From Kofleriaceae bacterium (GTDB taxonomy: Bacteria; Myxococcota_A; Polyangia; Haliangiales; Haliangiaceae), in the NCBI GenBank assembly GCA_048500355.1, contig JASNYD010000004.1, positions 192,001 to 256,000 of the forward strand: a DNA stretch of 64,000 nt, in the 5' to 3' direction. Shown in pieces: positions 23,261 through 62,304 of this stretch (position 1 is the stretch's first letter; the number at the start of each line of letters is the position of its first letter). Both the position numbers and the translations under genes were made by a program. The notes below the pieces were generated by a model. The model saw nothing but the letters and a program-made list of their open reading frames with translations. It ran no database searches and was not told the origin of the DNA.

Positions 23261-23611
23261 GGCGCGCAGGTGCTCCCAGGCGACACGCTGGCGCGCCCAT
23301 GAGACCTCGCGCGCGACGCGCTCGAACACAGCTCGCTCCGTCGGCGTTGAACCTCGAGTCGTCAGCGCGAGGATCTGATCCTGTATATCAGGCGCGAGAA
23401 ACGTCAGCCGGACCAGGACCGAGATCCGCTGACGGCTGACACCGAGCGCTCGTGCGACCGTCGCGTAGTCACTGACCTGCCCCGCCTCGACGGCTGCGCG
23501 GACCTGGATCGCAAACGCCAGGATGCGAGCAAGCGGCGCGGGCGTGGGCGCAGGTCGCGGCGTCGGTGCCGGCCGCGGCAGTCTTCCACCGAGAATTGCG
23601 CCGTCAACGCG
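23213..23611 (-). CDS. Small HTH DNA-binding protein encoded downstream of the recombinase; a candidate recombination directionality factor or regulator.
   Basis: A GTG start preceded by an AAGGAGAAG RBS lies within the last codons of the recombinase. HTH-like segment ATVARALGVSRQRISVLVRLTFLAPDIQDQIL. Its 3' end overlaps the convergent XRE gene. Confidence 0.4.
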   Translation of the reverse strand, partial: RVDGAILGGRLPRPAPTPRPAPTPAPLARILAFAIQVRAAVEAGQVSDYATVARALGVSRQRISVLVRLTFLAPDIQDQILALTTRGSTPTERAVFERVAREVSWARQRVAWEHLRALHDAEVDGRALRDGR

Positions 23612-25121
23612 CACCGCGCTTCTCCTTGGTCGCGGCGGCGCTCTGGGAGAGGAACGAGGCCAGACGGATCTGATAGCCGCCATTCGCGGCGTCCACGGTC
23701 ACCTGGTCCACCGCGGAGCGCACGACCCGGGCGCGGTTCTCGATAGACAAGAGCTCCCAGACCTCGTCGAGCCGTTCGAGCGAGCGCGCCACCGCCGCTC
23801 GGGTCTCGAGCTCGGAGGCGAGCCGACCAAGCCGTTCCTCCAGCGTCCCACGCTCGGCGCGCGCGGTCGCCATGGCCGCATCGTTGTCCGCGAGTGCGCG
23901 CACAACACCGGGCGCCGTTGGGTCGGCAGCGTTCGAGAGGATCTGATGGCGACCTGCCGCAAGTTGCGCGACGCGCTGAGCCAGCGCGGTCTGCCCCGAT
24001 CGGAGCGCCTCGCGCTCCGCATCGAGCTCGGCGCTCACCGCATCGACCAGATCGTGATCGAGCCCGGCCTCGCCCAGGCGCTGGCGGAGCACGTCGGCGA
24101 CCGCCTCCTCGATCGGCCCAGCCGCCAGGTGTCCACTTGGACACGCTGCGGCGTCCCGCTTGTCGCGGCGGAGGCATCGGTAGTAGCGGTACCGCTTTCC
24201 ATTCTTTCGCACCGACGCGCCGACCATCCGCGTCCCACACGCCGCACAGCGCAGGACGCCACCGAGCAGGAAGTCGGAACCGGTGCGGGCGACGTCGCCA
24301 CGACGATGCACCTTCAGGAGCTCCTGCACCTCGTGCCAGGTTTGCCGGCTCACCATCGGTTCGTGGACCCCATCGACGAGCTCATCGCCGACCCGCAGGA
24401 GCCCCGCGTAGACCGGCGCGGTAAGGACGCGGAGCACGGCGTTCTTGGTCCAGTCGCCCTCCTTCGCCGGTGGCGGCGCTCCCGCCGCATTCAGCTCCGC
24501 GGCGACCTGATTCGCCGACCGCACGTCGAGATAGCTGTCGTAGATCTGCCGCACCCAGCGAGCGCGTTCCGGATCGGGCCGGAGGCGTCGCTCCTCGAAC
24601 ACATAGCCGAAGGGCGTAACGCCGCCCGTCCATTGTCCCCGGCGGCGCGCGGCGCGGATCTTGTCGCGCGTGCGCGCGCAGATCATCTCGCGCTCGAACT
24701 CGGCAAACGTCATGAGGATGTTCAAGACCAGCCGCCCCATCGGGTCCGCGGTCGAGAAGTTCTGCGTGACCGAGACGAACGCTGCACCGCCCTCCTCGAA
24801 GCGCGACATGATCTGGGTGAAGTCGAGGAGCGAGCGCGACAGGCGGTCGAGCTTGTAGACGACGACCACGTCGATCTTCCCATCGTCGATGTCGGCGAGC
24901 AGACGCTGGAACGCCGGCCGATCCAGGTTCGCCCCGGTGTAGCCACCATCCTCGTAGACCTCGGTCATGGTCCATCCGTCCGCGGCGCGCAACGCGACGT
25001 ACTGCTCGCACGCCTCGCGCTGGGCATCGAGCGAGTTGAACTCCTGATCGAGCCCATGGGTCGTCGACTTGCGCACGTAGATGACGCAACGCTTCGCAGG
25101 GACCGCGTCGCGGAGCTTCAT
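23604..25121 (-). CDS. Large serine recombinase (phage integrase/resolvase family).
   Basis: Resolvase catalytic domain (CVIYVRKSTTHGLDQEFNSLDAQ), recombinase domain, Cys4 zinc ribbon (CAACGTR...CPSGH) and C-terminal coiled coil. Start taken at an internal ATG (MKLRDAV) of track ORF 23604..25196. Confidence 0.85.
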   Translation of the reverse strand: MKLRDAVPAKRCVIYVRKSTTHGLDQEFNSLDAQREACEQYVALRAADGWTMTEVYEDGGYTGANLDRPAFQRLLADIDDGKIDVVVVYKLDRLSRSLLDFTQIMSRFEEGGAAFVSVTQNFSTADPMGRLVLNILMTFAEFEREMICARTRDKIRAARRRGQWTGGVTPFGYVFEERRLRPDPERARWVRQIYDSYLDVRSANQVAAELNAAGAPPPAKEGDWTKNAVLRVLTAPVYAGLLRVGDELVDGVHEPMVSRQTWHEVQELLKVHRRGDVARTGSDFLLGGVLRCAACGTRMVGASVRKNGKRYRYYRCLRRDKRDAAACPSGHLAAGPIEEAVADVLRQRLGEAGLDHDLVDAVSAELDAEREALRSGQTALAQRVAQLAAGRHQILSNAADPTAPGVVRALADNDAAMATARAERGTLEERLGRLASELETRAAVARSLERLDEVWELLSIENRARVVRSAVDQVTVDAANGGYQIRLASFLSQSAAATKEKRGAR

Positions 25122-25135
25122 GGGCGGCTTGCGCG

Positions 25136-25681
25136 TCACGGCGCGGCCTCCTCGCTCGCTCCCTGCGTGAGCCCGAAGAACTGGAAGCCGTTCCACTGGC
25201 GCTGCGTGATGGTCCGCGCGACGTGACTCAGGCTCTTGTAGCGCCGGCCTTGGTAGGTGAACGAATCCTCTCCGACCTCCACCTCGTGGTCCTGGCCGCG
25301 GTACCGGCGCGTGAGACGCGTCCCGGGCGCGGGCAGGCGCGGGTCGCGCTCGAGCAGCGCTCGCTCGTCGCGCTTGTCCTTCGCGGGCGCAACGATCTGC
25401 ACCGGCTTCGCCCGCATCCGCCAGCGAAGAGGAACCTCGTCGCCGAGCTCGGCCACGCGCCGCGCGATGCCATCCTTGGGGTACGGCTCGGCACGCTCCT
25501 GGATCACCGTTGCAACCGCGCGCATCAGATAGTCGCGGTTGTTCGTGCGTACCGTCTGACCGGTGAGCTCGGCCAGACGACGCGCCAGATCGCGCGAGCT
25601 CATCGTACTGAGTGCAGCAAGCTCGTCCGTGAGGTCAGCTAGCTGCTGCGAGCTTCGAGTGTCCTTCTTCGACGTCATGCG
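25136..25681 (-). CDS. DUF2924-family protein, the typical partner of large serine recombinases.
   Basis: C-terminal signature LTRRYRGQDHEVEVGEDSFTYQGRRYKSLSHVARTITQRQWNGFQFFGL. Strong GGAAGGAGAA RBS before ATG (MTSKKDTR). Confidence 0.75.
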   Translation of the reverse strand, partial: RMTSKKDTRSSQQLADLTDELAALSTMSSRDLARRLAELTGQTVRTNNRDYLMRAVATVIQERAEPYPKDGIARRVAELGDEVPLRWRMRAKPVQIVAPAKDKRDERALLERDPRLPAPGTRLTRRYRGQDHEVEVGEDSFTYQGRRYKSLSHVARTITQRQWNGFQFFGLTQGASEEAAP

Positions 25682-28191: not shown

Positions 28192-29221
28192 CTAGAGAAC
28201 GGGAACGCTGCTCGAGCGACAAAGGCCATGGAACGGTGGGCCCTGCCCGACGAGATCGGCGAGGGCGCTGTCGTCGAGACGCGGCCGGAATTCCCCGACG
28301 TCGTCGCTCGTTCCCGTGCCTGAGCGCACGATCTGCGCGAGCTCGCGGCGGCCGCTCGCGTGCTCGACGAAGAGCACGCCGCCGTTCTGCCGCACCCACG
28401 GTGCCGCGCGCTTCACGTCGTCTGGATCAGAGAGCTGCTCGACTCGATCGAACCCGGCGATCGCCGATCGCACGGAGAACACCTTTCCGTGCATGAAACG
28501 GCAGATCAGCGTGGTCGCCTCGTCGAGCACGGCCTGGACGCGGTACCGCTCGATGCCGGCCTCGGCGTACGACGACATCTGCGCGAACGAGCGCGCGCGC
28601 CCGATGAACGCACCAGCGACGACCTCCCAGTAGAACCGCGACCGCCCGGTGAGCGTGGCCTCGGTCATGCCCGCGAGCTCAGTGGCGACATCGGCGCGAT
28701 CGCGTCCAGCCTCGAGCCCTGACGCCACAATCTGCCTGGCGCGTTGGCCGAGCTCGTCGAGCCGGCGGCCGTACGTGTCGGTCACGAACAGGGCGTGCGA
28801 GCGGGTCACGTGCCGCACGATGCGACGATCGAGCGCGTTCAGCTCGACGCCGATCGCGAGCCGATGGTGACGGCGCGAGACCGTGCGCGTCGCGCTCACG
28901 ACCTCGACGGCGGCATCGCCGAGCGGGGCGTCGAGCTTCGTGGGCACGACGCGAACATGGCGGCCGGCGACACGCATCGCCTCGTCCACGAGCCGTCGCC
29001 GCTCCGCGGCCGTCGTGCGCCTCCAGTCGACGTCGAGGACGGCTACGGCCTCACGCACCGCGCGTCCCTCGTCGCCGGCAGCGACGGCGCGGAGCCGCCC
29101 CGCAAGTGCGGCCACGGCCCGGTCGAAACCGGCGGCGGTCGAGAGGTCGAGGACCTTGGCGAGAGGCGCGCCGAGCACGTACGCAAGCAGCTCGTCGGCG
29201 GCGACGCGCCCGTCGAGGATG

Positions 29222-29238
<17 letters not shown>
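28192..29238 (-). CDS. Phage head morphogenesis protein (Mu gpF / SPP1 gp7-like).
   Basis: Lies immediately downstream of the portal gene. GGAGG RBS before an internal ATG (MTSPDDIL). The 5' end overlaps the portal 3' end. Family call by context and weak motif similarity. Confidence 0.45.
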
Positions 29239-30967
<1,729 letters not shown>

Positions 30968-30985
30968 CATCGACGCCATCTCCTC

Positions 30986-47745: not shown

Positions 47746-48690
<945 letters not shown>

Positions 48691-48715: not shown

Positions 48716-49498
48716 CTACTTGTCCCCGTGGAACGAGAGCGACTTGTCGACCGACGCGCGGTCCATCGGCGCGTTCAGGTCGAGCGGCCAGCTCACGTCA
48801 TCCTCGTCACCAGGGTCGCCGCCGGCTCCGCCACCCTCGGGTGTGCGCGACGCCGGCAGGCCCACGTTCTTCTCGACCTTGCCGATGCGGTCGCCCTGTT
48901 CTTTGAGCTGCGTCTCGAGCTTCGAGATCGAGCCGGCGATGCCGTCGAGCTTGGCCATCACCGGGTCCGCGCCACCGGGCGCCGCGTCCCGCTTCTGCGC
49001 CGGCGCGGTGACCGCTGTCTGAAGCCGCGCGAGCGCCGCCTTGACCTGGTTGAGGAGCGCCGTGACCGACTCGGCCGCCTTGCGACGGCGCTCGGCCTCC
49101 GCCTTCTCGTCCTCGTCCTCGTCGTCGTCCTCCTCTCCGCCTTCCTCGTCGTCGTCGTCGGCGCCTCCGCCACCACCGCCGCCCTTCGGCTTCTTCGGCG
49201 GCGGAAACGCCTTCTCCGCCGCGTCGATCGTGACCAGCTCGGCCAGCGCGGTGACCGCCTCGGTCAGCGCGGCCATCGCCTCGGTCCCGCCCGTCGCGGC
49301 TCCGCCGCCGCTCCCACCATCGCCCGGCGCGTCGTCCGGCGCCGGCGTTCCTTCGTCCGCCATCTTCTGTCTCCTCTTCACGATCAGGAAGCGGCGCTGG
49401 TTCGCCGCCCGATCGACGAGGCTGACTTCCTCGACGATCATGTCCACCAGCCGATGCACGCCGTCGGCGCGCTCGGAGTCATCGTTGTCGCCGGCCAT
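48716..49498 (-). CDS. Putative capsid scaffolding protein.
   Basis: AAGGAG RBS before ATG ([13 protein letters not shown]). Conserved N-terminus ([22 protein letters not shown]), acidic Gly/Asp/Glu-rich linkers and coiled-coil segments. Lies between the protease-domain gene and the MCP. Confidence 0.45.
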
Positions 49499-50823
49499 CA
49501 CGCCGCTCCTTCGCCGCCCGGCTCGGGCACACGCCGTGCCGAGCCGCCGATCGAGAAGCCGGTAAAGTCGCCGGACTTGACCTTCGCCCACAGCGCATCC
49601 GACAGGACGTGGACGCCGAGCAGCCAGGTGCCCTTCTTCACCACCTCCTCGCCGATTCGCAGGTCGTCGAGCGCGAGATAGCTCTCCACGATCTTCACCT
49701 GCCCGTTCACCGGCACCTGGTGCATGAGGCCCAGGCCGCGGAACTCCTCCAGGAACCGGTGCGCGACCTTGCGCACCTCCTCCGCCGAGTAGATGTCCTC
49801 CTGCGCGTCGACCGTCTCCGGCTCGAGCACGACCCCCAGCACGAACCGCTGCTCGCCGCGCTCCTCCGCCTTGAGGACCCGTCCGGTGATGCGGAACTCG
49901 TCCTCGACTTGGCCGTCCCAGTCATCGATCTGCACCTCGTCGGTGCTGAGCCCCGCAAGCGCCTTGGCCGTCGGCTCATAGTTCGAAGCCAAGATCTGGG
50001 TGAGCACGCTCGAGCCGCCCACGCCGCGCATCGAGCGGATCGTCCGCGGCGTGCGGATGCGCTTGACCGTGAAGCCCGCCTCGACGAGGGCCTTGGGCAG
50101 CGTGCCGCGAATCCCGTACGTCATGAGCCACTTGCCCTTCAGGTCCTTCAGCACCTTGAGGAAGCGGGCCTCGTCGAACTTCTTCTCGCCGACGTTCGCG
50201 TCGTACCCGGCGTACGGCGGGTCGAGGAAGAACACCGTGCTCTTGCCGTCGTACTTCCGCACGACCTTCTCGTAGTCGCCGTCGTAGACCTTCACCTTGC
50301 GCAACCGCGGCGCGTGCTGCGCCACGCGGTCCACGGTCGACGCCTCGACGCCCTGCGCCACCGGCGAGAAGCTCCGTCCGCGCAGCTTCCCGTACGAGAA
50401 GTGCGTGACGTAGAGGAACTTGTAGAGCCAGTCCACGTCGCTCGACGGCTCGGCATCGTAGAGCTTGAGAAAGGTCGACTTGTCGCCCTTCCAGCTCCGC
50501 GACCGCAGCTTGCCGAGGAACGCGTCGTCGGACCGCTGGATGAGTCGGTACGCCTTCGCGATGTCGGCATCGAAGTCGTTGATCGCCTCCACGGCTGCTG
50601 GCTCCTTCGCGAACAGCACTGCGGCGCTCCCCGCGAAGGGCTCGACGTAGGTCGTGTGCGTCGGCAGGAGCCCGGCGAGCCGCTTGGCGATGCGTCGCTT
50701 GCCGGCGGGCGAGCTCCAGATGGTCTTCTCGACCTCCTCGCGCGCTCCGAGCGTGAGCGCCGTCAGCCGCTCGATCGCCGTCCGAACGCGGGCCAGCGCT
50801 TCGGCCGATCCGACCGTCGTCAT
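49498..50823 (-). CDS. DNA N6-adenine methyltransferase (Dam, D12 class) fused to a C-terminal XkdF-like prohead-protease domain.
   Basis: Dam motifs YVEPFAGSAAV...INDFDADIAKAYRLI and FFLDPPYAGY. The C-terminal 170 aa match the XkdF pattern (VLEPETVDAQEDIYSAEEVRKVAHRF...IVESYLA...GTWLLGVHVLSDALWAKVKSGDFTGFSIGG). Strong GGGAGG RBS. The long N-terminal extension of track ORF 49498..51147 is judged spurious. Confidence 0.7.
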   Translation of the reverse strand: MTTVGSAEALARVRTAIERLTALTLGAREEVEKTIWSSPAGKRRIAKRLAGLLPTHTTYVEPFAGSAAVLFAKEPAAVEAINDFDADIAKAYRLIQRSDDAFLGKLRSRSWKGDKSTFLKLYDAEPSSDVDWLYKFLYVTHFSYGKLRGRSFSPVAQGVEASTVDRVAQHAPRLRKVKVYDGDYEKVVRKYDGKSTVFFLDPPYAGYDANVGEKKFDEARFLKVLKDLKGKWLMTYGIRGTLPKALVEAGFTVKRIRTPRTIRSMRGVGGSSVLTQILASNYEPTAKALAGLSTDEVQIDDWDGQVEDEFRITGRVLKAEERGEQRFVLGVVLEPETVDAQEDIYSAEEVRKVAHRFLEEFRGLGLMHQVPVNGQVKIVESYLALDDLRIGEEVVKKGTWLLGVHVLSDALWAKVKSGDFTGFSIGGSARRVPEPGGEGAA

Positions 50824-51365
50824 GGCCGACCTCCCGCCACGCGCGCAACCCTGAGCGCGCGCACCCTCGCGCGCCCAGAAGCCGCTCGCGCTGTGCGGTG
50901 TCGCTCGTCGGGACGGCCGCCCTCGAGCGCGCCACGACCACGCAGCCAGGAGATCACCCGGCGCTGGGTCTGCACCTTGAGCCACGCTGGCGACACCCGA
51001 CGCCGCGGACGGAGCCGACACACGACGTCGAGAAACGCCACGACGACCAGGCTGTTTCCGTCGTCTTGGGACATCGCCTCCGATTCGAAGCGGCGGGCGA
51101 TGCGCTCGAGCCACGTGCGGCACGCGATGACCAGCGCCGCCGACCACGCCGGAGCCGGCGAGCGTTGGGCCTGACGGGTCAGCGCACCGACCAGGAGCTC
51201 GAGCCGCGCGTGAGAAGCGTCATGCAGCACCCGCGCAAGCGCTGGCCCAGTGCCCATCGCACGAAGGACGTGCTCCTTGGACGCGGCGATGTCGACGCCG
51301 TGCCAGGCGCTCGGTCGCGCCAGCCAGGCGGCCAGCCGTTCGATCAGCTCCTGGAATGAGCTCAC
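50820..51365 (-). CDS. Hypothetical phage protein.
   Basis: 181 aa. Its stop overlaps the Dam start (ATGA). Confidence 0.35.
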   Translation of the reverse strand: MSSFQELIERLAAWLARPSAWHGVDIAASKEHVLRAMGTGPALARVLHDASHARLELLVGALTRQAQRSPAPAWSAALVIACRTWLERIARRFESEAMSQDDGNSLVVVAFLDVVCRLRPRRRVSPAWLKVQTQRRVISWLRGRGALEGGRPDERHRTARAASGRARVRALRVARVAGGRP

Positions 51366-52425: not shown

Positions 52426-52924
52426 GACTCCTCCGCTCGTGTGATTTCGGCGACCCGCTGTCGCCCACCCAGCCGGGACGCGCGCCGCCGCGCGTCCCGA
52501 CTACCCTCGCGCCCCGCGACCGCCCCACGCACCCGCGTCCTGTCGGGCGCGCCCAACCGCCGCGCCGCAGACGCGACCGTGGCGACGCGCATCGGTCCGA
52601 CTGGTCCCGCAGGCCATGGGGTCGGTCGTATTCGTCCCGTTCACGCGGTCGACCCTACGGACGTGAGAGCGCGCGCGATAGGCGTGTTCCGAAACGTCAG
52701 TCGGTTCCGCGCATCCCGTAACGGCTCGCGTCGCACCGAAGGACACGCCTTGACGAGAAGCTCGGAACGGACCGCTGCGGGCGTCACGAAAGATCAACCG
52801 CCGCTGTTGTTTCCGGAAGCAGCCCGGTGGCCCTACCTTTGCCCGAGCGGTGAGCGTGGCTTCGACGCCGAAATCGTCGACGTCTCGCGAAACCGCGCCG
52901 CCGGCCTGCCGATACGCGCGCGCG

Positions 52925-54022
52925 ATGAAAGTCGCCTCAAACCCACCGTTCCCTGTCACCCGCCTTGGCGCTGGTGCGCGCGACCGAGATCTCTCCTCGC
53001 CAGGCGGCGCCGTCGCGTTCGTGGCGCTGACCTCGCGCGGGTACTACCGCATCCCGGCCGGCGCGACGCAGTTCATGATGGGCAGCGATCCGGCGCGCTG
53101 CGAGCTCGTGATCCCGGGCTGTCCCGAGATCTCGGGCCAGCACGTGCTCGTTCACGTCGAGGACGATCAGGTCTACGTCAGCGACGTCGGGTCGACGAAC
53201 GGCACGAGGATCGACGGGAGTCCGAGCCGGCGAGGTGCCGTCCGGCCTGGCAAGGTCATGGCCATGGCCGGCTATGGCGTGGTCCTCGTGTCCCAGCAGA
53301 TGAACCGCTGGCTCGAGGAGCTCAACGTCTACGTCGGCAGAACCCAGCACGCCTCCCAGCTGCTGGCGCTGTCGCCGAGTCGGCACCTCATCCTGATCGG
53401 CGAACGCTATACTCCGCTCGAGGAGATCGCGCGAGCCGCACACCACGCCGTCGCGACCGACGCGAGCCCAATCGTCTGCGTCCCGGTGGAGCACCCCTCG
53501 CACACCGAGGCACGCGTGCTCGAGCGCGCGATCAACGGGAGGGTCTTCATCGACGGCCGCGGCACCCCACGCCGAAGCGCGGCACCGATCTTCAGCGAGG
53601 AGCAACTGGATCGGCTGCGCCATCCGCAGCAGCTCACCGCTCTTACAGTTGGCCTGCGTCGCCCGGCAGATATCACGCTGCGGCTCCTCGAGCGCGACCC
53701 GTTCGTGCTCAACGTCCCGTCGATCAAGCACCGCATCGAGAACGGCGGGCTCGATGACCTGATCGACGCGCTCTACGTGAAGTGGGAGGTTCCGTTCCGG
53801 GCAAAGCACTGGGCCGGCGCGCTGCGCGACCGCATCGCCAACCATGCATGGAAGAAAGACCATACGCAGTTCACCGCGGTTGTCGTGGCCGTCGGACGGA
53901 TGTGGGCGGGCCTCGACGAGCACCACGCCGTCGAGGGGCTTGGCGCCACGCAGACCGTCAAGGACTGGCTCACGGCCCTGGACCTGGGCTGGGCCTCCGC
54001 GCGCGCCGGGCGTCCCCGCTAG
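52925..54022 (+). CDS. FHA-domain protein.
   Basis: FHA core YYRIPAGATQFMMGSDPARCELVIPGCPEISGQHVLVHVEDDQVYVSDVGSTNGTRIDG. Start taken at an internal ATG of track ORF 52850..54022. Confidence 0.6.
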   Translation: MKVASNPPFPVTRLGAGARDRDLSSPGGAVAFVALTSRGYYRIPAGATQFMMGSDPARCELVIPGCPEISGQHVLVHVEDDQVYVSDVGSTNGTRIDGSPSRRGAVRPGKVMAMAGYGVVLVSQQMNRWLEELNVYVGRTQHASQLLALSPSRHLILIGERYTPLEEIARAAHHAVATDASPIVCVPVEHPSHTEARVLERAINGRVFIDGRGTPRRSAAPIFSEEQLDRLRHPQQLTALTVGLRRPADITLRLLERDPFVLNVPSIKHRIENGGLDDLIDALYVKWEVPFRAKHWAGALRDRIANHAWKKDHTQFTAVVVAVGRMWAGLDEHHAVEGLGATQTVKDWLTALDLGWASARAGRPR

Positions 54023-59727: not shown

Positions 59728-62304
59728 ATGACTGGCTCCGACGACACCGCCCTCGCGGGGTACCATATGTACTTCGCTCCGCCACTCGTCTCACCGAGTG
59801 GCAATGCGGCTCCGATGCGTGGCCCGCTCTCGGACGACTCGGGGCGCGCGCTGATGATCGCGCCCGGCGTCGAGCTCGACCCGCACGTCTACCCTGAGCT
59901 GATACCTGGGCGCTACCTGCTGGTGCCGGTGGACGCGCGCGGTCGCGAGCTGCCGCATCTGCAACGAATCGAGAAGCAGATCGTCGACACGCACCGAACG
60001 CGCTTGATGCAGGCCGTCACCGCCGAGGCAACACTGCTCGTGATGGGCGAGGCCCTCCAGAACCCGAAGCTCGCGACGGCGCTCTTCGACCTGGTTCAGT
60101 CGGGTGACAAGCAGGGGCTCCTGCTTCATGCGATGCAGCGAGCCGGCCAGGAGATCTGGGGCGGCCCGGTTCCCGATGCGCCTCTCGACGAAGAGACAAG
60201 GCGTCGCCTCGTGAAGATGACCGCCGACAAGCTCATCGAGAGCGTCCGCGGCGTCCTCGCCCAGGACGATCCCCAACGTTACCGTCTCGAGCGAGAAGGC
60301 TTCGATGCGCTCGTCAAGCAGCCCCTGGTGCTCTCGGTCGACCACATCATGGCGTCGGCGGCTCGCGCGGACTACGAGGACGCCGCGGTGCGCGCTCTTG
60401 CGAAGCTCTACATCCGTGAGGAGCTTCCGTTCTGGTTCGTCGGCGACATCCTGCCCGGCCTCGGCCAGCTCGACGTCTTTCTCATCCTCATCCGCTACGC
60501 GAGCGGCGACATCGTCGGCGGTCTCATCGAGCTCTTCGAGAAGGATCGCTTCCCGCGAACGCTCGAAGGGAGCGAGCAGCGAGCGCTTGCGCTGTTCGCG
60601 CTGTGGACCCTTGGCGGGGCTCCGGTGCGGCGACCGGTCCTTCGGTGGATGCGGCGTCTCATCCGCACGCCGCTCAGTGTCAGGGCGGCCGCTCTCCTCT
60701 TGTGGCTGGCGCGCGAGCTCGCCGACGCCGGCTTGAACCAGATCGTCGACGAGCTGGCGCTATCTGTGGAACAGAGCCTGATCGACGGCATCGGCACGGC
60801 TGCTGCTCACCTCCTCGCACGCGGCACGCTCGACGACGTGATCCTGCGGCTGCCGCAGCGGCGCGCAGACCTGCCCTTCCCTGGCGTGAGCGTTCGTGCG
60901 CCGCAGAAGCCCCGCCCGAACGAGCCTTGTCCCTGCGGCAGCGGATTGAAGGTCAAGAAGTGCCACGGCGATCGTGCCCTGGAGCTGGTGGCGCCAGCGG
61001 CGAGCCGCGGCCGGCAGATCCGTGAAGCCTCGGGCCGCATCCAACCAGATCAGGTTCCTCGGTTGGCGCGCGTCGACCTCGCCCGGATGGACCTCGGCAC
61101 GACTCGCGACGACACCCTCGTGCAGCTCCTCCGCTGGCAGATGTACCTGGCGGACTGGGACCGCGCAGGGCTGATCGCCGACGAGCTCGCCAGCCGCCCT
61201 TCGATGCGCGCGCAGGCCGACACCCACCGGTACGAGCTCATCACATGGGCCCTCCGGTACGACCAGCACGAGGTTGCCTCGAAGCAGATCGCGAAGCTCT
61301 TGAACCCGGAGACCGCGGCGGGCGTGCGCGTGATGCTCGCCCACCGCGCTGACGAGTCAGCCACACTCGCCGATCTGCGAACCGCCGCCAAGGTCGCTGT
61401 CGAGGATCCTACCGGGGCAAACGCGTTTGCTCTTGCCACGCTCCTGATGAGCTTCGACAAGTCGCTCGCGATTCTCGTCGCCCGAAGTGCGCTACGCCCT
61501 GACCAGCTCGACAACGCCGCTGTGCTGATCCAGCAGATCGAGGACGCGCGCGACGACCTCCTCCTTCCTCCCGGTGATCCGGCCATCGACCTCTTCACCA
61601 TGATGGGCGGTGTCCGCAAGGCCCGTGTCGCGGCAGACCAAGAGCGAGCTTCGCTCGCGAAGGAGGCTGACTCGCTGCGCAACGAGCTCGAGGCGAAGAC
61701 GCGACGGCTGTCGGAGATGGAGCGCGACTTGGAGCGTCGTGAGCAGGAGCTCCGCGAGGCGCGCCAGCGCGCCGACGATGCACAAGCTCAACCGACGCGT
61801 TCAGAGCAGGAGCGGCGGGCGAGCAAGGAGAAGATCGGGCGGCTCGAGGCGCTCGTGCGGGAGAAGAACGAGCAGCTCGCCGAGTCCCGACGCGCGCTCG
61901 CCGTCACGAGCGCGCCGACGCCAGTCGGGACGAGCGCGACCGTGGGGACTGACGACGACGACGATGAGGATGAACTCGAGGAAGCGCAGGACGCGGCGCC
62001 GCGGACCGTACTGGTCGCACGCTACACGCCGCGGGCGGCGACCGCCTTGGCGGCGGTCCCGCGCAACGTTGGAAGCATCGCTGCGCGTACGGTTGGGGCC
62101 CTGGCCGCGGGAGACGACGGCCCCTGGCGGAGTGTGAAGCAGGCCAAGGACATGCCGAGGCAGGTGTTGATGGCGCGTATCGGCATCCACTACCGGCTCT
62201 TGTTCCGTTGCGACACCGGCGGCGAGCTCGAGGTGGTCGACCTCGTCACGCGTGAAGACCTGATGTTGACGCTCAAGCGTCTCCGGAACACGAGGAGTCC
62301 ATGA
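59728..62304 (+). CDS. Large multidomain protein: N-terminal domain of unknown function, SEC-C zinc motif, helical (TPR-like) region, coiled coil, acidic linker, C-terminal RelE/ParE-like toxin domain.
   Basis: SEC-C motif PCPCGSGLKVKKCHGD (~nt 60926-60972). Coiled coil SLAKEADSLRNELEAKTRRLSEMERDLERREQELREARQRAD. DDDDDEDELEE linker. C-terminus MPRQVLMARIGIHYRLLFRCDTGGELEVVDLVTREDL resembles the RelE/ParE fold. Confidence 0.55.
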   Translation: MTGSDDTALAGYHMYFAPPLVSPSGNAAPMRGPLSDDSGRALMIAPGVELDPHVYPELIPGRYLLVPVDARGRELPHLQRIEKQIVDTHRTRLMQAVTAEATLLVMGEALQNPKLATALFDLVQSGDKQGLLLHAMQRAGQEIWGGPVPDAPLDEETRRRLVKMTADKLIESVRGVLAQDDPQRYRLEREGFDALVKQPLVLSVDHIMASAARADYEDAAVRALAKLYIREELPFWFVGDILPGLGQLDVFLILIRYASGDIVGGLIELFEKDRFPRTLEGSEQRALALFALWTLGGAPVRRPVLRWMRRLIRTPLSVRAAALLLWLARELADAGLNQIVDELALSVEQSLIDGIGTAAAHLLARGTLDDVILRLPQRRADLPFPGVSVRAPQKPRPNEPCPCGSGLKVKKCHGDRALELVAPAASRGRQIREASGRIQPDQVPRLARVDLARMDLGTTRDDTLVQLLRWQMYLADWDRAGLIADELASRPSMRAQADTHRYELITWALRYDQHEVASKQIAKLLNPETAAGVRVMLAHRADESATLADLRTAAKVAVEDPTGANAFALATLLMSFDKSLAILVARSALRPDQLDNAAVLIQQIEDARDDLLLPPGDPAIDLFTMMGGVRKARVAADQERASLAKEADSLRNELEAKTRRLSEMERDLERREQELREARQRADDAQAQPTRSEQERRASKEKIGRLEALVREKNEQLAESRRALAVTSAPTPVGTSATVGTDDDDDEDELEEAQDAAPRTVLVARYTPRAATALAAVPRNVGSIAARTVGALAAGDDGPWRSVKQAKDMPRQVLMARIGIHYRLLFRCDTGGELEVVDLVTREDLMLTLKRLRNTRSP

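Follow-up and report, generated by a model that had tools for sequence, protein, structure and literature searches.

A Dam-type methylase fused to an XkdF domain in the head operon of a Kofleriaceae prophage, and its possible loading into procapsids

Results

The fusion gene and its two domains

We analyzed a 64,000-nucleotide (nt) stretch of DNA from a Kofleriaceae bacterium (contig JASNYD010000004.1, positions 192,001-256,000; GCA_048500355.1), hereafter called the window. It holds a prophage in which a DNA adenine methylase of the Dam family and an XkdF-type domain are joined in one polypeptide, and we describe here this fusion, its relatives and its possible role as a cargo protein of the assembling head. 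An earlier note on this DNA had claimed an in-frame fusion at 49498-50823, composed of a complete D12-class methylase and an XkdF-type domain. The fusion gene comprises the following features.

49498..50823, minus strand: coding sequence of the methylase-XkdF fusion, 441 amino acids (aa), from the open reading frame (ORF) and its translation; the same protein as MBE7449175.1
49954..50727, minus strand: Dam-family (D12) N6-adenine DNA methyltransferase domain, residues ~33-290
50617..50643, minus strand: motif I for binding of S-adenosylmethionine (SAM), EPFAGSAAV, residues 61-69, from the sequence
50212..50223, minus strand: catalytic motif IV, DPPY, residues 201-204, from the sequence
49867..49953, minus strand: inter-domain linker, residues ~291-319, variable in length and sequence
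49531..49866, minus strand: XkdF/Peptidase_S78_2 domain, residues 320-431 (PF14550; phrog_3017)

As listed, the ORF lies exactly where it had been placed, and it runs through both domains with zero internal stops over its 441 aa. The ATG start (50823-50821) is preceded by a GGGAGG ribosome-binding site at 50830-50835 and overlaps the TGA of an upstream 181-aa ORF as ATGA, and the gene ends at the TGA at 49500-49498. A protein identical to the translation was found in the protein collection, deposited from a metagenome-assembled genome (MAG) under the name 'MAG: DNA adenine methylase [Kofleriaceae bacterium]' and encoded on a 948-kb contig. Pfam profiles matched both parts of the protein: PF02086 (MethyltransfD12) scored 58.8 bits at residues 41-231 (cut-off 22), and PF14550 (Peptidase_S78_2/XkdF) scored 102.5 bits at residues 320-431 (cut-off 24), the latter covering profile positions 8-124 of 126. 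Both methylase motifs quoted in the earlier note were present, and the XkdF score was fourfold over its threshold, which refuted the concern that the XkdF-like region might fail its hidden Markov model (HMM). Likewise, the concern that a frameshift might separate the two domains did not hold, since 41 homologues of 58-91% identity were colinear across the methylase and XkdF domains, conserved in both, with no frameshift between them. In the alignment of 42 homologues, many residues of both domains were invariant and the linker was variable, with alignment columns ~301-345 gapped and poorly conserved; the predicted local distance difference test score (pLDDT) was also low at residues 308-314. 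The methylase-XkdF fusion architecture is real.

Within the methylase domain, SPAGKRR at residues 38-44 corresponds to the Dam-type N-terminal (G/A)GK motif and stands N-terminal to motifs I and IV. All three stretches were invariant or nearly so in the 42 homologues; E61, P62, F63, G65, S66 and A68 of motif I and D201, P202, P203 and Y204 of motif IV were invariant throughout. The domain also has the Dam-type fold, including the target-recognition insert. It belongs to the Dam family and looks active. Its target sequence cannot be read off the protein sequence.

The XkdF domain was matched by phrog_3017, 'head maturation protease', with E 2.7e-36. Its candidate catalytic residues are D339 (49807-49809), D343, H368 (49720-49722) and S424 in GFSIGG (49552-49554). 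All four were invariant in 62 diverse proteins that carry other domains as cargo ahead of XkdF, and they were kept in the XkdF of Lactococcus phage 28201, Rhizobium phage RHph_Y1_11 and Pseudomonas phage Boevelstad. This invariant set of Ser, His and Asp fits a Ser/His/Asp peptidase, in which these residues would have the catalytic role. Neither the Pfam S78 family (PF04586) nor another peptidase family matched the domain, even at E values up to 10, and no other protease candidate was seen among the scanned ORFs of the prophage. In some jumbo phages, XkdF has been treated as the probable peptidase for head processing, yet it was called 'unrelated' to the SH prohead peptidases (Iyer et al. 2021, PMC7824862).

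The scaffold gene, its junction with the fusion gene and triple fusions

The fusion gene was said in the earlier note to lie immediately upstream of the scaffold and major capsid genes, and the adjoining features bear this out.

49496..49512, minus strand: fusion/scaffold junction, with a GAAGGAG ribosome-binding site at 49506-49512 followed by TGATG
48716..49498, minus strand: scaffold-like protein, 260 aa, acidic, coiled-coil, with a conserved C-terminus (phrog_13975, E 1.9e-31; identical to HS111_09840)
49376..49456, minus strand: conserved N-terminal scaffold motif, residues 15-41, matching phrog_3017 positions 4-34
47746..48690, minus strand: major capsid protein, 314 aa (phrog_1623, E 3.4e-94; phrog_10 'major head protein')

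In the TGATG of the junction, the stop codon of the fusion gene and the start codon of the scaffold gene share one base, and the two genes are translationally coupled. The same overlaps, of 1 or 4 nt, were found at the fusion/scaffold junctions of the three relatives compared for gene order, namely L004 (a Myxococcota MAG), L007 (the complete Archangium violaceum genome CP069338) and L008 (a Polyangia MAG). The scaffold protein was 67% identical to that of L004 over a 43-residue N-terminal alignment, the sole part aligned by BLASTP. The conserved motif is covered by no Pfam family and sits after XkdF in the triple fusions described below, and in gp33 of Lactococcus phage 28201 it stands before XkdF, as VTHVSYVDKAANKKQFFLTK (L009, 3908-4000). 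Written as a consensus of ~25 residues, the motif is (V/I)xEVS(L/Y)VDxAANxxxF(L/F)hxK, and it is conserved between the scaffolds of myxobacterial prophages, where it comes after XkdF (either fused to it or on the following gene), and the lactococcal phage, where it comes first. It may be a protease site, a docking peptide or a fold element.

Complete methylase-XkdF-motif-scaffold polypeptides were also found, namely P0129 (749 aa), P0136 (607 aa) and P0162 (736 aa), and their C-terminus, SWPLD.N.P.DR.SVD...SFH, is the same as that of the scaffold protein in the window. P0136 is present on four contigs; on a 69.5-kb JGI contig, the capsid gene comes directly next, no separate scaffold gene is present and the neighbors are intact. 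The scaffold protein works inside the shell, so a methylase covalently joined to it must start inside, unless it is cleaved beforehand. There were 322 scaffold homologues, and the 120 of them listed were 176-312 aa long, with no methyltransferase or XkdF Pfam domain on record. As the majority of these homologues stand alone, the window shows the usual, split form. Comparison of these sequences indicates that both fusion and fission of the scaffold have occurred between lineages.

Several candidates were rejected or found no support in this connection. The fused relative P0090 was discounted as evidence of fusion, since the portal on its contig is cut to 421 aa, compared to ~600, and small ORFs replace the MuF-like gene. 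Relatives of ~720 aa, considered as methylase-XkdF-scaffold fusions, turned out to carry a second D12 domain instead. That the scaffold motif completes the XkdF fold by strand complementation was unsupported by AlphaFold modeling of the natural fusion P0090, in which the motif had pLDDT <50, and in gp33 of Lactococcus phage 28201 the motif is on the other side of XkdF. A resemblance of the motif to the C-terminal block of HK97-type S78 peptidases found no support either, as no PF04586 match was obtained at E values of up to 10, whether the motif was attached or not. Furthermore, relative to the fusion gene the scaffold is read in the -1 frame, which stays open over the 31 codons ahead of the scaffold ATG (49498-49591, minus strand), so that a -1 shift there would give a methylase-XkdF-scaffold protein like the natural triple fusions. 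Programmed -1 frameshifting was unsupported, since no canonical slippery heptamer was seen in the 94-nt overlap.

XkdF as a C-terminal module behind varied cargo

HMMER was then employed with the XkdF domain alone, and it returned 6,244 cluster representatives, of which the best 150 were listed, 140 of them with a GFSIGG-type motif. Among these 140 closest representatives, at least 150 aa precede XkdF in 119 and at least 500 residues in 50, and the protein ends within 35 residues after XkdF in 120. Pfam domains recognized as cargo in the 62 proteins scanned were the D12 methylase (21), InPase (17), ATP-dependent DNA ligase (7), the Thoeris inhibitor Tad3 (2) and inteins (1). Cargo-XkdF proteins reach 2,190 aa. 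The giant proteins ending in XkdF (P0220 with 2190 aa, P0153, P0183, P0208, P0138 and P0123) carry DNA ligase, Tad3, inteins or methylase-InPase, plus up to ~1,000 residues without an assigned domain.

Phage polyvalent proteins have been described with 2-15 domains and an assemblin-like peptidase that is always C-terminal, and their packaging and injection have been predicted (Iyer et al. 2017, J Bacteriol, PMC5512222). In that description, InPase is specific to the phage-type polyvalent proteins, and the N6A methylase is a hub domain (PMC5512222). The fusion in the window, a methylase with a C-terminal peptidase in a head operon, has this layout at its lower limit of two domains, and relatives with two methylases, methylase-InPase or Tad3-ligase cargo fit it fully.

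Distribution of the fusion

A word-indexed protein search with the fusion protein gave 571 matches, and all 120 listed carry both PF02086 and PF14550, so that the database search proposed in the earlier note found the same fusion in at least 120 proteins. The carriers are mostly Myxococcota, including Kofleriaceae, Polyangiaceae, Sandaracinaceae, Haliangium (Hoch_0647), Corallococcus, Myxococcus and Archangium. PHROG 13242 matched the fusion protein end to end (E 2.5e-185), and the NCBI names include 'XkdF-like putative serine protease domain-containing protein'. The fusion is thus less unusual than the earlier note suggests and belongs to a large catalogued family. Both PHROGs and NCBI annotation already contain its architecture, which agrees with a concept published from computational work. 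Literature searches for XkdF, PF14550 and methylase/prohead-protease fusions found neither a paper describing the fusion nor experiments on it.

In the ~720-aa relatives (P0007-P0063, e.g., P0010; L008 8001-10196), two tandem D12 methylase domains are followed by XkdF. With 43% identity to the methylase domain in the window, the additional copy is a diverged paralogue, which suggests two specificities in one cargo protein. No cultured or deposited phage genome with the fusion was found: 533 phage records matched the query, none covered at least 80% of it, and the best places listed covered only the methylase part.

Prophage setting and head-gene order

Further features of the prophage are as follows.

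23604..25196, minus strand: large serine recombinase (Resolvase, Recombinase and Zn-ribbon domains)
28192..29358, minus strand: MuF-like minor head protein (phrog_13868, E 1.9e-114; minor-head-protein PHROGs; weak PF04233 match)
29222..30985, minus strand: portal protein (phrog_12, E 1e-36; PF04860)

The guanine-plus-cytosine content of the window is 65-78%, with a step down at ~22 kb from ~0.76-0.78 to ~0.66-0.69. This step and the serine recombinase mark the left end of the prophage, which reaches at least the right edge of the window. Downstream of the capsid gene, whose orthologues in relatives carry PF05065 (Phage_capsid), genes for a head-tail adaptor, tail sheath, tail tube, tape measure and baseplate follow on the minus strand, and the prophage is temperate and contractile-tailed. 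Directly upstream of the fusion gene lie a RusA-like resolvase gene and two unknown ORFs, and the replication genes are divergently transcribed from ~52.8 kb.

In the three relatives, the order is portal, MuF, a small ORF, fusion, scaffold and capsid, and later sheath and tube. The portal of L004, 63% identical to that in the window, lies ~2 kb upstream of the fusion gene, with the MuF-like gene, whose product is 55% identical to its counterpart in the window, and the small ORF between. Stand-alone XkdF genes of cultured phages also lie between the portal and capsid genes. This position, shared by relatives and cultured phages, indicates that the XkdF domain occupies the slot of the head protease, and no other peptidase family is on record in the precomputed Pfam annotation of the L007 and L008 head modules. 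The claim that the fusion sits inside the head-assembly module is thus correct as to the adjoining scaffold and capsid genes and the canonical order in relatives. However, the portal and MuF-like genes of this prophage come after the baseplate genes, ~20 kb from the protease, scaffold and capsid genes. Searched with the terminase fragment of L008, the 64-kb window also yielded no terminase homologue. These findings may reflect a rearranged or defective prophage, or the terminase could be encoded past the 64 kb.

Other observations in this DNA and its relatives concern genes and sequence statistics. An FHA-domain protein is encoded at 52850-54022 on the plus strand, divergent from the late operon. 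An 858-aa protein encoded among the primase and helicase genes (59728-62304, plus strand) has a SEC-C motif as its only recognizable feature. CTAG is strongly under-represented, with an observed/expected ratio of 0.16 in the host flank (1-21900) and 0.48 in the prophage (22000-64000), and AGCT is over-represented in the host flank (1.95). In L013, the triple-fusion gene is preceded by a serine recombinase gene ~650 nt upstream, and a single small ORF separates the two.

Discussion

Proposed role of the fusion

The reading to which we give a little better than an even chance is that XkdF is a head protease and brings the Dam methylase along into the procapsid, as its cargo, either for delivery with the DNA to the next host or for methylation during packaging. 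Targeting of the methylase into procapsids had already been suggested in the earlier note. It is favored by the protease slot, the coupling to the scaffold gene, the triple fusions and the C-terminal position of XkdF behind varied cargo, all of them comparative lines of evidence, by which capsid loading of the methylase appears well supported. Protease activity, capsid incorporation, ejection, the target sequence and a benefit against restriction are putative elements of this proposal.

The proposed course would be as follows. As head-maturation protease, the XkdF domain would enter the assembling procapsid together with the scaffold; coupled translation would make the fusion and scaffold proteins here, and covalent joining would serve in some relatives. 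The N-terminal Dam-type methylase would thereby be carried into the procapsid as cargo of XkdF. Once the shell has assembled, the protease should cut up the scaffold and possibly also the flexible linker, which would leave the folded methylase in the head with the packaged DNA. Most likely, the methylase would then leave with the DNA at the next infection and methylate the incoming genome before host restriction acts; less likely, it would act on the DNA during packaging.

Several points weigh against this proposal. The Dam methylases of many phages work late in infection and in the cytoplasm, and an encapsidated methylase would need SAM and would be forced to unfold to pass the tail. GATC occurs at 385 sites in the prophage with an observed/expected ratio of 1.02, and such an expected frequency gives no hint of the specificity of the methylase or of selection; the statistics of other 4-mer palindromes were likewise uninformative. 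Since the fusion and scaffold are separate proteins in this prophage, recruitment would rest on a putative non-covalent contact, and AlphaFold gave no docking of the N-terminal scaffold motif onto XkdF (pLDDT <50). As for the protease itself, a sequence-profile search found no PDB relative of the XkdF domain, whole-model fold searches were dominated by methyltransferase matches, and the XkdF part of the model had a pLDDT of only 64-88 per 10-residue block. Our literature searches found no characterized XkdF-family protease, and we know of no biochemical proof of protease activity for any member of the family.

A wider form of the same idea is that XkdF serves as a general capsid-loading vehicle, such that anti-defense enzymes placed on its N-terminus (Dam methylases, single or in tandem, DNA ligase, InPase and the Thoeris inhibitor Tad3) enter the procapsid beside the scaffold, are cut free, are co-injected and act before phage genes are expressed. 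We regard this as a tentative possibility.

As the main alternative, the methylase may work in the cytoplasm and be no component of the virion. The fusion would then serve only for late, stoichiometric co-expression, XkdF alone would serve head assembly, and the whole protein or a self-released methylase fragment would methylate replicated phage DNA before or during packaging. The location of the gene in the late structural operon agrees with this explanation, and so does the abundance of stand-alone Dam-type methylases in phages, as reflected in the 533 matching phage records. Also in its favor, the flexible and variable linker could be cut, and the scaffold homologues are mostly separate proteins. 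Nevertheless, it leaves unexplained why a protease domain in particular was joined to the methylase, why some lineages also fuse the scaffold, which works inside the shell, and why diverse cargo always stands N-terminal to XkdF. Capsid loading gives the better account of the scaffold fusions and of the cargo-XkdF pattern, and we consider the cytoplasmic reading rather doubtful.

XkdF might also be a module that binds scaffold or capsid rather than a working protease, with any proteolysis carried out by something else. The protease activity of the family comes from annotation only; the family has no solved relative, matches no other peptidase family at E up to 10 and was called 'unrelated' to the SH prohead peptidases by Iyer et al. 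2021 (PMC7824862), all of which suits such a module. However, the Ser in GFSIGG, the His and the two Asp are invariant in very distant members, which fits catalysis better than binding alone, and the head modules examined contain no other peptidase gene, making a purely binding role quite unlikely. Finally, it is hardly credible that the fusion is an artefact of gene calling or assembly or a decaying pseudogene of a defective prophage: although no terminase homologue was found in the window, the portal and MuF-like genes are displaced and the fused relative P0090 lies on a contig with a truncated portal (421 aa against ~600) and small ORFs in place of the MuF-like gene, the ORF exactly matches a protein deposited at NCBI, and independent assemblies, the complete Archangium genome among them, hold over 120 colinear homologues with both domains strongly conserved.

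Comparison with known systems

The proposal of capsid loading can be set against several known systems. Like the polyvalent proteins (PMC5512222), the fusion joins a conflict enzyme to a C-terminal head peptidase in one polypeptide encoded among virion genes, and its close XkdF relatives carry InPase, ligase and Tad3 cargo. In contrast to them, it is minimal, with one cargo domain plus the peptidase, and its methylase is of the D12/Dam type, whereas their dominant type is EcoKI/TaqI-like and comes with a helicase. Identity of their 'assemblin-like' peptidase with PF14550 could not be confirmed, and XkdF was later set apart from the SH peptidases by the same group.

The DarB protein of phage P1, with which the fusion had been compared in the earlier note, is a DNA adenine methylase and head component that protects incoming DNA in cis from restriction (PMC5512222). 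It consists of an EcoKI/TaqI-like (gamma-class, NPPY/F) methylase, an SF2 helicase and LPD36, with no protease fusion (PMC5512222). DarB can serve as a functional model for an encapsidated methylase, and the analogy is reasonable in this sense. It does not extend to kinship: the fusion carries a D12/Dam methylase with DPPY, its 441 aa matched no helicase family, and by its sequence it is not a member of the DarB family.

The XkdF of PBSX and the stand-alone XkdF proteins of cultured phages share with the fusion PF14550, the same invariant Asp, His and Ser, and the position between the portal and capsid genes, but they carry no methylase. Among them, gp33 of Lactococcus phage 28201 also has the VSxVDxAAN..F motif, together with a scaffold-like tail that is coiled-coil. 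There, XkdF comes after the motif and shares its polypeptide with the scaffold part, whereas in the window the motif and scaffold are in a separate downstream gene and the methylase is at the N-terminus of the fusion.

Orphan phage Dam methylases, such as T4 Dam and those of VP882 and phiHAP-1, have the same D12 family and fold. In the records examined, they bear the plain annotation of DNA (adenine) methylases, and the matches listed stop at the methylase part of the query. To our knowledge, there is no report of them as capsid proteins.

Capsid targeting in T4 uses a short N-terminal peptide that is removed by gp21, whereas the targeting module of the fusion would be the protease domain itself and C-terminal. 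The likeness to the T4 internal proteins and Alt and to MuF effectors would lie in head loading by way of an assembly component. In the case of Alt and the MuF-fused effectors, enzymes are loaded into the head via a head-assembly component and delivered with the DNA (PMC5512222). The fusion differs from the MuF-fused effectors in that MuF is encoded by a separate gene in this prophage.

Significance and annotation

If the methylase is loaded into heads, the fusion would be a simple and genetically tractable case of a phage that pre-arms its particle against restriction, with the head protease being both the address label and the release mechanism. Should XkdF indeed act as a vehicle, the genome entering the next host would bring its own Dam methylase along and would have protection already during the first infection round. 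The same C-terminal module bears ligases, pyrophosphatase-like domains and a Thoeris inhibitor in relatives, and it could thus offer a delivery route for many counter-defense proteins.

A practical point is that the fusions have contaminated annotation, in that stand-alone XkdF head proteins are labeled 'DNA methyltransferase'. Such proteins, of 150-349 aa and with no detectable methylase domain, bear the label 'DNA methyltransferase' or 'DNA methyltransferase/prohead protease', and three such records were checked.

L011 3423-3875: Pseudomonas phage Boevelstad
L010 3965-4603: Rhizobium phage RHph_Y1_11
Lactococcus phage 28201

The mislabeling was apparently carried over from fusion families such as phrog_1530. 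Similarly, the same methyltransferase label was observed at the XkdF match in Lactococcus phages 50901, 62501 and 98201.

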